Below are positions 31,313 through 32,479 of a DNA stretch of 64,000 nt, in pieces (position 1 is the first letter of the stretch; each line of letters begins with the position of its first letter). The translations under genes and the position numbers were made by a program. The DNA is from Escherichia coli (lineage in GTDB: Bacteria; Pseudomonadota; Gammaproteobacteria; Enterobacterales; Enterobacteriaceae): assembly GCF_003334785.1 (NCBI RefSeq), contig NZ_QOWV01000010.1; one strand, given 5' to 3'. The notes beneath the pieces were generated by a model. The model had not been told where the DNA came from. It saw only the letters and a list, made by a program, of their open reading frames with translations, and ran no database searches.

Positions 31313-32052
31313 GTAACTGGCCTTATCCCCGCATCGTCGCTCATCGTGGCGGCGGTAAGCTGGCCCCGGAAAACACCCTGGCGGCAATCGACGTCGGGGC
31401 AAAATACGGTCATAAGATGATCGAATTTGACGCGAAGTTATCGAAAGATGGCGAGATCTTCCTGCTCCATGACGACAATCTCGAACGTACCAGCAACGGC
31501 TGGGGCGTCGCGGGTGAACTGAACTGGCAGGATTTACTGCGCGTGGATGCGGGCAGTTGGTACAGCAAAATGTTTAAAGGTGAGCCGCTACCGTTGCTTT
31601 CGCAGGTGGCGGAACGTTGCCGCGAACACGGGATGATGGCGAATATCGAAATCAAACCCACCACCGGCACCGGGCCATTAACGGGCAAAATGGTGGCGCT
31701 GGCGGCACGCGAGCTGTGGGCCGGTATGACGCCGCCGCTGCTGTCATCGTTTGAGATTGATGCTTTAGAAGCTGCACAACAGGCGGCACCGGAACTGCCG
31801 CGCGGTTTGTTGCTGGATGAGTGGCGCGACGACTGGCGCGAACTGACCGCGCGGCTGGGCTGCGTCTCTATTCATCTCAATCATAAGTTACTCAATAAAG
31901 CGCGAGTGATGCAGTTGAAAGACGCCGGACTGCGGATTCTGGTTTATACCGTCAATAAACCCCAGCGCGCAGCAGAGTTGCTGCGCTGGGGTGTGGATTG
32001 CATCTGTACCGATGCGATTGACGTGATTGGTCCGAACTTTACGGCCCAATAG
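31309..32052 (+). CDS. ugpQ: Glycerophosphodiester phosphodiesterase
   Basis: 247 aa; 4-nt overlap with ugpC; recognised GDPD-family sequence. Confidence 0.92.
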
Positions 32053-32479
32053 TTTTCAACGGAATGTCAGGCTGCGGCGTGCTGGGCTGATTCAGCATGT
32101 CGCCGTTTCTCCTCTCCGGCAGCATATGCTGCTGATTCAACGAACTATCCGGATTACGGTTGCTGTTTAACATCCCGCCGTTGGTGTTGGGCAGCATTTG
32201 CTGCCGGGCGGGATTTCGCTCCCCCGGCTGTGACTGCAACACCCGCTGAGAATTATTGTTTATCTGGTTTTCTAAATGCTGCTGTTGCAACTGAGTTTGC
32301 GTTTTCAGTTGCTGATTCAGCATCCCTTTTTGCTGGATTTGCTGAGTCTGCATCTGGGTTTGCATCCGCTGCTGGCTGGGTATCTGATACCCCGGCTGGT
32401 TAGGGTTGTTCAGAGTATTAATGGGCTGTGCAAAGCCGACAAACGGCAGGAGTGCCGTAAGAATCAGAAGTCGTTTCAT
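32039..32479 (-). CDS. yhhA: Secreted Gln/Asn-rich low-complexity protein
   Basis: 146 aa; N-terminal signal peptide [17 protein letters not shown]; remainder dominated by Q, N, M, L repeats; 3' end overlaps ugpQ 3' end by 14 bp (convergent). Confidence 0.85.

Follow-up and report, generated by a model that had tools for sequence, protein, structure and literature searches.

The window analysed here is a 64-kb stretch of Escherichia coli DNA in which a single reading frame on the minus strand lies between ugpQ and ggt, convergent with the first and divergent from the second (Table 1). A preliminary description, made from the sequence, had given this frame the name yhhA, and both the name and the extent of the frame proved to be exact: the ORF list delimits the same frame, and the encoded protein is 100% identical to the MG1655 (E. 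coli K-12) protein and is annotated yhhA in RefSeq E. coli genomes. Profile-HMM scores exceed the curated threshold for the DUF2756 family with both models used. The NCBIfam equivalog NF007675 gives 265 bits against a cutoff of 136 and covers residues 1-146, and Pfam PF10956 matches residues 1-105 with a model of 105 positions (1.1e-60). The family pattern, a signal peptide followed by an NNPNQPGY..PSQQRMQxQM core, is present in an alignment of 33 YhhA homologue sequences (A1). Complete E. coli genomes, those of K-12 laboratory strains among them, carry the gene in 5425 of 5426 cases. With sequence and ggt-yhhA-ugpQ context identical to those of K-12 YhhA and a full-length match to the family (PF10956; NF007675 / PRK10350), the window protein is the same protein, and it is practically certain that the locus is yhhA, a previously annotated core gene of E. 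coli and an uncharacterised member of DUF2756.

Table 1. Coordinates of yhhA, its predicted parts and its surroundings in the window
Feature	Position	Strand	Basis or remark
ugpQ, glycerophosphodiester phosphodiesterase, convergent neighbour	31309..32052	+	ORF list
Overlap of the convergent yhhA/ugpQ 3' ends, 14 bp	32039..32052	.	ORF coordinates
yhhA CDS, DUF2756 family	32039..32479	-	ORF list; 146 codons and TAA stop, ATG start
C-terminal motif IPLKTIGP, residues 139-146	32042..32065	-	Conservation among tail-bearing sequences
Pro/Asn/Gly-rich tail, residues 83-138	32066..32233	-	Predicted disordered; holds four of the five ML[N/P] motifs
Gln-rich conserved core, residues 34-82	32234..32380	-	AlphaFold2, predicted single 49-residue alpha-helix; conservation
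Asn/Pro-rich N-terminal segment, residues 18-33	32381..32428	-	Column conservation (A1); predicted non-helical
Sec-type signal peptide, residues 1-17	32429..32479	-	Rule-based n/h/c regions; predicted cleavage before Q18
Shine-Dalgarno GGAGG	32487..32491	-	Read from sequence; 7 nt upstream of the yhhA ATG
Invariant TAAACTTA(A) block, candidate sigma-S-type -10 of yhhA	32506..32514	-	Six-genus alignment
Invariant 10-nt block TAAGCCTGGT, ggt-yhhA divergent spacer	32555..32564	-	Alignment A2, six genera
ggt, gamma-glutamyltransferase, divergent neighbour	32599..34341	+	ORF list

DUF2756 is a narrow family with no solved structure, confined to Enterobacteriaceae and Erwiniaceae, and a search with YhhA against 1.84 billion representatives matched only 65 clusters. 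A Pfam search with the protein returned DUF2756 alone and no catalytic domain, a profile search of the PDB gave noise only (E about 0.5), PHROGs gave no match (best E = 0.049), and a search of positions 31700-32700 against Rfam was likewise without a match.

The signal peptide claimed in the preliminary description is borne out. Its n, h and c regions are recognisable, with K2/R3, a hydrophobic run of 14 residues and G15/A17 at -3/-1, and it has no lipobox Cys. At the predicted cleavage site the residue at -1 is Ala in 31 of the 33 homologues, and the residue at -3 is small (A/S/C/V/G) in all of them. With this cleavable Sec signal the protein would reach the periplasm, where its mature form, of about 14.7 kDa, would be basic and very hydrophilic. 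In STEC surface-protein extracts YhhA is among the top 15 proteins by abundance, together with the periplasmic proteins HdeB, Ivy, ZraP and SodC (PMC9731836), and it has been detected by MS in an ESBL E. coli strain (PMC9927464) and in Salmonella (PMC4265081). That the protein might not be expressed or exported, which the preliminary description had named as grounds for abandoning its reading, is contradicted by these detections by MS in E. coli and Salmonella.

According to one proposal, YhhA is an effector secreted by the type III system and imitates substrates of host ATM kinase through its S/TQ and QS/T motifs (bioRxiv 10.1101/364117, where it is reportedly a validated EPEC effector). The protein does contain seven [ST]Q and four Q[ST] sites, but because 22% of its residues are Gln, S/TQ sites are expected by chance. 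An effector of this kind should have a non-cleaved type III signal and be restricted to strains with a type III secretion system, whereas we found a canonical cleavable N-terminal Sec signal in all homologues, with an AxA-type site, and a gene that is near-universal in E. coli, K-12 included (the 5425 of 5426 genomes above), and occurs in many genera at a housekeeping locus. The Sec signal and the near-universal presence argue against the published suggestion, which we regard as barely credible.

We next consider the region upstream of yhhA, where all six genera in the alignment retain a GGAGG/GAGGA element. A simple sigma-70 promoter scan of positions 31800-32700 returned no site, and the promoter proposal for yhhA is based on conservation across genera instead. 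The eight bases TAAACTTA are invariant in 6/6 genera, the ninth base being variable, and the block lies 30 nt upstream of the ATG. The sigma-S -10 consensus is TATACTTAA, and from the resemblance to it, together with the conservation, we infer that TAAACTTA(A) is a candidate sigma-S-type -10 for yhhA. The invariant block TAAGCCTGGT, which lies further into the spacer, may bind a regulator or belong to the promoter of ggt or of yhhA. Several published data sets bear on regulation. A SELEX peak of the sigma-S holoenzyme falls in the ggt/yhhA spacer (PMC5493296), yhhA is induced with rpoS at the transition to stationary phase (PMC2241611), it belongs with rpoS to a hub up-regulated under multiple stresses (PMC9501238), and a LolCDE inhibitor raises its expression 5.6- to 9.9-fold (PMC5105897). 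The transcriptomic part of the stress evidence is correlative. Stationary phase and envelope stress would both raise yhhA transcription, probably through a sigma-S-type promoter in the spacer shared with ggt. Export and stress regulation are both drawn from good support, and we consider them likely.

The gene order at this locus recurs beyond E. coli. A DUF2756 gene lies between ggt and ugpQ in the window and at most loci of at least seven taxa, the exceptions being a phage-like contig (L001) and the weakest match (L013); when the homologue on that contig was compared by tblastn with 50,697 phage records, no match emerged. Downstream of the DUF2756 gene, a GDPD-family gene is found at most loci examined and is missing or truncated at two (L010 and L012). 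On the other side, a G_glu_transpept gene is divergent from it at loci of most genera examined, from Escherichia to Erwinia. The spacer between ggt and the DUF2756 gene is 119 bp here and about 110-190 bp at most loci, and an insertion makes it larger in Erwinia psidii.

One reading is that YhhA and GGT, whose genes are divergent neighbours, act together, YhhA serving for instance as a partner or a modulator of the enzyme in the periplasm, and that both are co-regulated from the common 119-bp spacer. GGT is periplasmic, as YhhA is predicted to be, the spacer holds the invariant 10-nt block, and the divergent pair is kept from Escherichia to Erwinia, even at a locus (L011) that lacks the ugpBAEC genes. 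However, ugpQ is an equally constant neighbour, and synteny with ggt is weak evidence because synteny is generally high among such closely related families. One locus (L010) has a DUF2756 gene with no ggt called, the homologue on the phage-like contig is without ggt, and ggt is far more widespread than DUF2756 with its 65 clusters. There is also no biochemical rationale for the pairing, since the substrate of GGT is a free gamma-glutamyl amino acid and not peptide-bound Gln. On balance a partnership with GGT seems to us very unlikely.

The richness in Gln and Asn for which the protein had been singled out holds up under counting. Of the 128 residues that make up mature YhhA (18-146), 28 are Q and 18 are N (36%), and its best 80-residue stretch (residues 21-100) has 36 Q/N, against 20 for the runner-up among the six-frame ORFs of the 64-kb window. 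Over the full length the Q/N fraction is 0.32, which is twice that of the next of the 83 ORFs of at least 100 aa in the window. The preliminary description went further and called the mature protein almost entirely Q/N/M/L repeats. This wording is overstated, since Q+N+M+L make up 65/128 residues (51%) and TRF found no tandem repeats in yhhA DNA. Imperfect direct repeats in the DNA are only short (13-37 nt), and given the TRF result the word "repeats" fits short motifs only. One that genuinely recurs is the dipeptide motif ML[N/P], which occurs five times (at 53, 95, 103, 119 and 128); five ML were reached by 0 of 20000 shuffles. The mature chain has a pI of 10.4 and a GRAVY of -1.40, contains no Cys, Trp or Phe, one Tyr and two His, and includes 14 Pro and 16 charged residues in 128, with Met at 5.5%.

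Conservation in YhhA extends to individual positions. In A1, M43 is invariant and Q37, R38, Q46, Q47, Q50, L54, Q56, Q61, Q66, L69 and Q72 are conserved in at least 90% of the sequences; altogether 15 columns reach an identity of 90% or more, and 11 of these belong to the mature chain. The Gln-rich core is the portion common to the most distant homologues, and GGML, HML, NG[DS]ML and IPLKTIGP are kept within Enterobacteriaceae. Where the tail is present, its C-terminal motif has an invariant P140 and almost invariant I139, K142 and T143. Compared with four other genera, yhhA has a pN of 0.14-0.20 and a pS of 0.69-0.80 (saturated), and 24-27 of its 29 Gln are retained, with a different codon in 6-11 of them. 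The Q-rich sequence is thus kept across orthologues, and the loss of the repeats from orthologues, which the preliminary description had also named as telling against it, did not materialise. These alignments show that the order of residues, beyond their composition, is conserved across Enterobacteriaceae and Erwinia and is under selection.

The same comparisons bear on the possibility that the ORF has no sequence-specific function, being either a low-complexity peptide that is tolerated or a gene in slow decay. Compared with ugpQ and ggt, it evolves about 2-3 times faster. Some rare natural alleles of E. coli have lost 10-50 residues in frame, in the helix or the tail, and duplications of 10-17 residues are also seen, while no phenotype was found in the literature searched. 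The deletion alleles indicate that the full architecture of YhhA is not strictly required. Against an absence of function stand a pN far under pS, a frame that is intact in essentially all E. coli, positions invariant across genera, stress-regulated expression and the abundance of the protein in envelope extracts, and we judge a functionless ORF to be highly improbable. We conclude that yhhA is a genuine protein-coding gene under purifying selection and that its product is made.

AlphaFold2 models residues 34-82 of YhhA as one long helix (pLDDT 80-89), residues 18-33 without secondary structure (pLDDT about 58-68) and the tail at a pLDDT of 48-54. In the model, only the N-terminal 16 and the C-terminal 64 residues of the mature protein look disordered. 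The preliminary description of the protein as prion-like or intrinsically disordered appears half right: it fits the Q/N composition and the disordered-looking flanks, whereas the 49 residues richest in Gln are predicted to be helical and have near-invariant positions.

Would a Q/N-rich region of this kind self-assemble in the envelope of stationary-phase cells, into fibres resembling amyloid or into a gel formed by phase separation? By the Michelitsch-Weissman criterion, at least 30 Q+N per 80 residues mark a prion-like composition, and YhhA has 36. Residues 35-84 form a Pro-free stretch of 50 residues that is 50% Q/N and in which Gln alternates with M/T/L; its hydropathy has a beta-like period of about 2.1 at borderline significance (p = 0.06). 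YhhA is also like the eukaryotic-type Q/N-rich prion-like domains of Sup35 and Ure2 in having few charged or aromatic residues, and its abundance in envelope extracts (PMC9731836) counts in favour of the idea. In contrast to the Sup35/Ure2-type domains, YhhA is exported to the periplasm, its Q-rich core is predicted to be helical (at the pLDDT given above), its flanks are rich in Pro, and the order of its residues is conserved beyond composition. Prion domains conserve composition and not order, and the near-invariant positions in the core make YhhA unlike them; the sequence drift with composition kept that is typical of such domains is not seen, M43 being invariant and pN far below a saturated pS. 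The 14 Pro and 16 charged residues in the mature chain count against fibre formation as well.

A functional amyloid of the curli type fares no better. CsgA and CsgB have in common with YhhA Sec export, Q/N richness, a stationary-phase (sigma-S linked) setting and an enterobacterial distribution, whereas YhhA is without the five-fold imperfect curlin repeats, tandem repeats of any sort, a curlin Pfam match and csgEFG-type export genes nearby (its neighbours are ugpQ and ggt), and it is predicted to form a helix and not a beta-solenoid. We consider a prion-like YhhA that forms amyloid or condensates unlikely.

The helix itself was assessed as a coiled coil or amphipathic helix, and this assignment found no support. 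Fourier analysis of hydropathy (residues 35-84) and conservation (residues 36-82) gave no significant signal at helical periods (p = 0.08-0.35), and with no significant helical periodicity in either measure there is no clear binding face on the YhhA helix. A tethered dimer, in which a 30-residue Gly/Ser linker connected two copies of residues 30-88, was modelled with AlphaFold2 and had a helix pLDDT of about 71 and a pTM of 0.32. As the run brought no gain in confidence, coiled-coil self-association is not supported by this crude test.

The methionines suggest a different role, in which YhhA would protect the periplasm either by offering Met as a sacrificial sink for oxidants (HOCl, with recycling by MsrPQ) or by binding Cu(I)/Ag(I) in the manner of SilE and PcoE. 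Met makes up 5.5% of the mature chain and is kept over other hydrophobic residues, with M43 invariant and M53, M103, M119 and M128 present in most sequences. The helix bears an M39xxxM43 pair, H118-M119 is conserved, and expression is linked to stress. SilE and PcoE share with YhhA, as predicted here, a periplasmic location and disorder, along with conserved Met and helix-forming segments. They differ from it in their multiple HxxM/MxxH (or MxxM) motifs and in their metal-resistance loci; HxxM and MxxH are absent from YhhA, which has the single MxxxM pair (39-43), one adjacent H118-M119, two His only and no Cys, so that a SilE/PcoE-type assignment was rejected. M95 is freely swapped for P/V/L/I, no metal-resistance or msr genes lie near the locus, and induction by copper or oxidants was not found in the literature searched. 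Protection through Met is, in our view, improbable.

Our analysis adds a testable anatomy to YhhA: a signal peptide, a Gln-rich helix, four ML motifs in the tail and a C-terminal peptide. With it we suggest that mature YhhA would be a non-enzymatic binding module. The 49-residue helix, the predicted disordered tail with its four ML motifs and the IPLKTIGP peptide would dock onto other YhhA chains or onto partners, one or several, in the envelope. In the periplasm of stationary-phase cells the protein would then play the part of a scaffold or of a chaperone-like protector. As a whole, the explanation that joins the identity of yhhA, Sec export, stress induction and a periplasmic binding module is tentative and falls somewhat short of an even chance. 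The binding mechanism is its weakest step, and we infer it with reserve; that the mature protein acts as a binding module is possible but doubtful.

Several known periplasmic proteins resemble YhhA in general features. Spy, CpxP and ZraP (LTXXQ), HdeA and HdeB, and Asr are small, Sec-exported, stress-induced proteins that abound in envelope extracts, are largely helical or disordered and have no enzymatic activity, as is predicted of YhhA. YhhA is, however, unrelated to them in sequence, has no LTXXQ motif and matches DUF2756 alone in Pfam. Membership of the LTXXQ family (CpxP/Spy/ZraP) was considered and rejected, as there was no match to that Pfam family at E <= 10 and no L-T-x-x-Q in YhhA.

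A bolder version would make YhhA a coiled-coil-prone Q/N-rich protein that self-assembles reversibly in the periplasm in stationary phase, as a gel, a condensate or an amyloid-like polymer, with the ML motifs and the C-terminal peptide acting as multivalent stickers. We give it very little credence. If true, self-assembly could alter the material properties of the envelope under stress, and YhhA would stand as a rare case of its kind among bacteria. Although it still counts among the y-gene products of E. coli without a function, YhhA is core, abundant in envelope extracts and stress-induced. Its function, if found, would fill a small gap in what is understood of the stationary-phase periplasm and would open no long-standing question.

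At the other end of the gene, the 14-bp overlap with the 3' end of ugpQ that had been read from the sequence was recovered from the ORF coordinates. The corresponding overlap is 4 bp in Salmonella and Enterobacter, 17 bp in Citrobacter and 0 in Buttiauxella, Erwinia and strain 4M9, and because its length differs between genera the exact 14 bp is incidental. A hairpin lies on the + strand at 32074-32103, within yhhA. The yhhA-ugpQ pair is one of the 165 convergent excludons of MG1655, with overlapping transcripts (PMC12288877).

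The gene had been described as yhhA, encoding a secreted, Gln/Asn-rich, low-complexity protein that is prion-like or disordered. The name and coordinates are right, as a 751-bp query spanning the locus aligns with E. coli K-12 MG1655 at 100% identity and finds a match in 5425 of 5426 complete E. coli genomes, whose annotation reads "yhhA: DUF2756 family protein," and the product matches the NCBIfam equivalog NF007675 at 265 bits (cutoff 136 bits) and Pfam PF10956 at 1.1e-60. The locus is yhhA, a known, uncharacterised member of DUF2756. Gene and family were already established, and the present analysis adds anatomy at residue level, evidence that the order of residues is under selection, a candidate sigma-S promoter and the ggt-yhhA-ugpQ arrangement. 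Two ORFs opposite yhhA are Leu-rich because CAG-rich coding sequence reads as CTG codons on the other strand, and nothing suggests that these antisense ORFs are genes.

Features of the yhhA region (window positions) and of loci with distant or displaced DUF2756 homologues (L001, L007, L013)
Feature	Position	Strand	Remarks
yhhA	32039-32479	-	146 codons, ATG start, TAA stop; read in the window
ugpQ	31309-32052	+	convergent neighbor on the ugpC-ugpQ side, TAG stop
ggt	32599-34341	+	neighbor on the other side of yhhA
yhhA/ugpQ shared frames	32039-32052		14 bp
Invariant block TAAGCCTGGT	32555-32564	-	10 nt; spacer alignment, six genera, Escherichia to divergent strain 4M9
Invariant block TAAACTTA(A)	32506-32514	-	spacer alignment, six genera; 30 nt upstream of yhhA ATG
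Ribosome-binding site GGAGG of yhhA	32487-32491	-	downstream of the TAAACTTA(A) block
Hairpin	32074-32103	+	13-bp stem, then CGTTTCTCCT; just past the ugpQ stop, inside yhhA
Sigma-28 peak region	about 31309-32052		ugpQ interior
P97 codon	about 32190	-	changed in C41(DE3)
Antisense ORF	32276-32509	+	77 aa, Leu-rich
Antisense ORF	32230-32403	+	57 aa, Leu-rich
CesT-family chaperone and AvrPphF-ORF2-type type III effector genes	L007 4680-5750		Erwinia psidii, between ggt and the DUF2756 gene
P0168 gene	L001 6001-6264	+	87 aa, own signal peptide; JGI contig Ga0157361_1000017, 109 kb
P0180 gene	L013 313-633	+	weakest family match examined, E = 2.8e-4

The YhhA N-terminus shows all three regions of a Sec signal peptide, with QP directly after the predicted cleavage site. 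Of 33 aligned homologues, 31 have Ala at position -1 and all have A, S, C, V or G at -3; a lipobox cysteine is lacking from the YhhA signal peptide. In the mature chain, 128 residues long, there are 28 Q, 18 N, 14 P and 12 L and no Cys, Trp or Phe; its pI is 10.4 and its GRAVY -1.40. The criterion for Q/N-rich prion-like domains is 30 Q/N per 80 residues, which YhhA exceeds with 36 in its richest stretch; the runner-up ORF in any frame of the window has 20. The observation itself is therefore confirmed, but "almost entirely Q/N/M/L repeats" was too strong, since Q, N, M and L together account for 51% of the mature chain, no tandem repeat in yhhA was reported by Tandem Repeats Finder, and the direct repeats present are all imperfect and short, at 13-37 nt. 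ML followed by N or P recurs five times (residues 53, 95, 103, 119 and 128), and none of 20,000 shuffles attained five ML dipeptides.

A word-indexed search gave 467 relatives; the 120 matches listed all carry PF10956, and the organisms named as sources are Escherichia, Salmonella, Citrobacter, Enterobacter, Yokenella, Phytobacter, Buttiauxella and Dryocola. HMMER, run exhaustively over 1.84 billion cluster representatives, matched no more than 65 clusters at E <= 0.001, the farthest named being from Erwinia psidii, Erwinia sp. HR93/Apirhabdus and unclassified Enterobacteriaceae, so that DUF2756 is by these searches a narrow family. M43 is invariant in the 33-sequence alignment, and M1, L10, A17, P34, Q37, R38, Q46, Q47, Q50, L54, Q56, Q61, Q66, L69 and Q72 are at least 90% conserved. 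All members share the signal peptide and residues about 18-86, including NNPNQPGY..PSQQRMQxQM and QQQHLExQINNNxQRVxQSQPG; tail motifs including NG[D/S]ML and the C-terminal IPLKTIGP are kept within Enterobacteriaceae. Nei-Gojobori comparison with the orthologues of Salmonella, Enterobacter, Buttiauxella and Citrobacter gave a pN of 0.14-0.20 and a saturated pS of 0.69-0.80, with pN roughly 2-3 times that of ugpQ and ggt, yet far under neutrality. Among the 29 Gln codons of E. coli yhhA, 24-27 still encode Gln in the compared orthologues, 6-11 of those with a different codon. The low pN and the retention of Gln despite codon change indicate that selection acts on the protein sequence, and the Q-rich sequence is kept in orthologues.

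YhhA is also made. By NSAF it ranked within the top 15 proteins when surface proteins were extracted from Shiga-toxigenic E. coli, a set that also contains periplasmic HdeB, Ivy, ZraP, SodC and PsiF (PMC9731836), and it was quantified in Salmonella (PMC4265081) and in an antibiotic-stressed ESBL strain of E. coli (PMC9927464). Evidence for the proposed secretion is indirect but consistent, consisting of the Sec-type signal and these accompanying periplasmic proteins. Purifying selection and protein abundance contradict the idea that YhhA is a functionless peptide. It has been proposed that YhhA is a type III effector (bioRxiv 10.1101/364117), which is contradicted by the Sec signal and by presence of the gene in virtually all E. 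coli, K-12 included.

In the ggt-yhhA spacer aligned from six genera, two blocks are invariant on the yhhA strand. TAAGCCTGGT might bind a regulator or belong to one of the two divergent promoters. TAAACTTAA resembles the sigma-S -10 consensus TATACTTAA, and we infer a candidate sigma-S promoter of yhhA at the TAAACTTA(A) block. Genomic SELEX located a sigma-S holoenzyme peak in this spacer (PMC5493296), and yhhA is induced with rpoS on entry to stationary phase (PMC2241611) and belongs to a multi-stress up-regulated network hub alongside rpoS (PMC9501238). In other transcriptome papers a LolCDE inhibitor raises yhhA 5.6- to 9.9-fold (PMC5105897), and mild acid induction is described (PMC2270276, PMC7824302). 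On the best-supported reading, YhhA is exported by the Sec route to the periplasm, is induced in stationary phase and envelope stress, and has no enzyme-like domain.

AlphaFold2, run with the 33-sequence protein alignment, predicted a single unbroken helix at residues 34-82 (block-mean pLDDT 80-89), with pLDDT under about 60 elsewhere and a pTM of 0.32, on which basis YhhA is probably a conserved Q-rich helix between conserved, flexible flanks. A profile search against all PDB sequences gave no match. The Q/N composition fits a prion-like, amyloid or condensate-forming protein, but this reading is weakened by conservation at individual positions, by the helix prediction and by the number of prolines, so that the preliminary interpretation is partly supported. 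A Met-based oxidant sink or metal binder fits in part, given the conserved Met residues, although YhhA is without the usual motif density. For the periplasmic stress protein, the conserved helix, multivalent ML motifs and C-terminal peptide might mediate protein-protein or self-association, and YhhA might then act as a scaffold, or in a chaperone-like way, within the envelope under stress. Against this role, spectral analysis found no significant helical periodicity for conservation (p = 0.08-0.12) or hydropathy (p = 0.35), and a tethered dimer of residues 30-88 brought no rise in prediction confidence. Gln alternating with M/T/L at a period near 2.1 gave a borderline signal (p = 0.06).

Rare in-frame length variants of 96 to 163 aa occur in E. 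coli (P0001-P0003, P0012, P0022, P0026, P0035 and P0092), some duplicating 10, 11 or 17 residues and others lacking 10, 17, 21, 38 or 50 residues, in the helix and tail. Exact microhomologies of 3-9 nt at the deletion junctions suggest slippage between short CAG-rich direct repeats. The laboratory strain C41(DE3) is reported to carry a C-to-T change at yhhA nucleotide 290, Pro to Leu, deemed irrelevant to the strain phenotype by the authors (PMC4632034); by our count this is P97, within the conserved LPNTNGGML motif and Pro in 25 of 27 aligned sequences.

The DUF2756 gene is divergent from ggt and convergent with ugpQ in most loci examined (Salmonella, Enterobacter, Buttiauxella, Citrobacter, Enterobacteriaceae strain 4M9, Erwinia psidii, Apirhabdus/Erwinia HR93 and several metagenomic contigs), and this synteny is what suggests a possible functional tie to GGT. 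The ggt spacer is about 110-190 bp in most loci and larger in Erwinia psidii because of an insertion; an OspG-kinase-like gene lies farther upstream there. At L010 and L012 ugpQ is absent or truncated, and L010 also lacks a called ggt. P0180 adjoins an mlaFEDC-like operon, not ggt/ugpQ, carries a long extension at its N-terminus and is perhaps not a true orthologue. The distant homologue P0168 is encoded between phage portal/capsid and TerL/Terminase_2 genes, not ggt/ugpQ, and has a cluster mate on two contigs whose length reaches about 107 kb; P0168 is perhaps a copy carried by a phage. A tblastn search of P0168 against 50,697 phage records gave no match. P0168 has a weak match to PHROGs of Rz-like spanins (E = 4e-4); E. 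coli YhhA has none.

The described 3' overlap of yhhA with ugpQ is present, at 14 bp in E. coli, 4 bp in Salmonella and Enterobacter and 17 bp in Citrobacter, and is absent in Buttiauxella, strain 4M9 and Erwinia; because its length differs among genera, the exact 14 bp is incidental. A sigma-28 (RpoF) holoenzyme peak of intensity 18.1 lies within ugpQ, between yhhA and ugpC (genomic SELEX, PMC5493296). Lying within yhhA, the hairpin possibly acts as a weak terminator for ugpQ, and this would be in keeping with the published overlapping transcription of yhhA and ugpQ in MG1655, one of 165 convergent excludons (PMC12288877).
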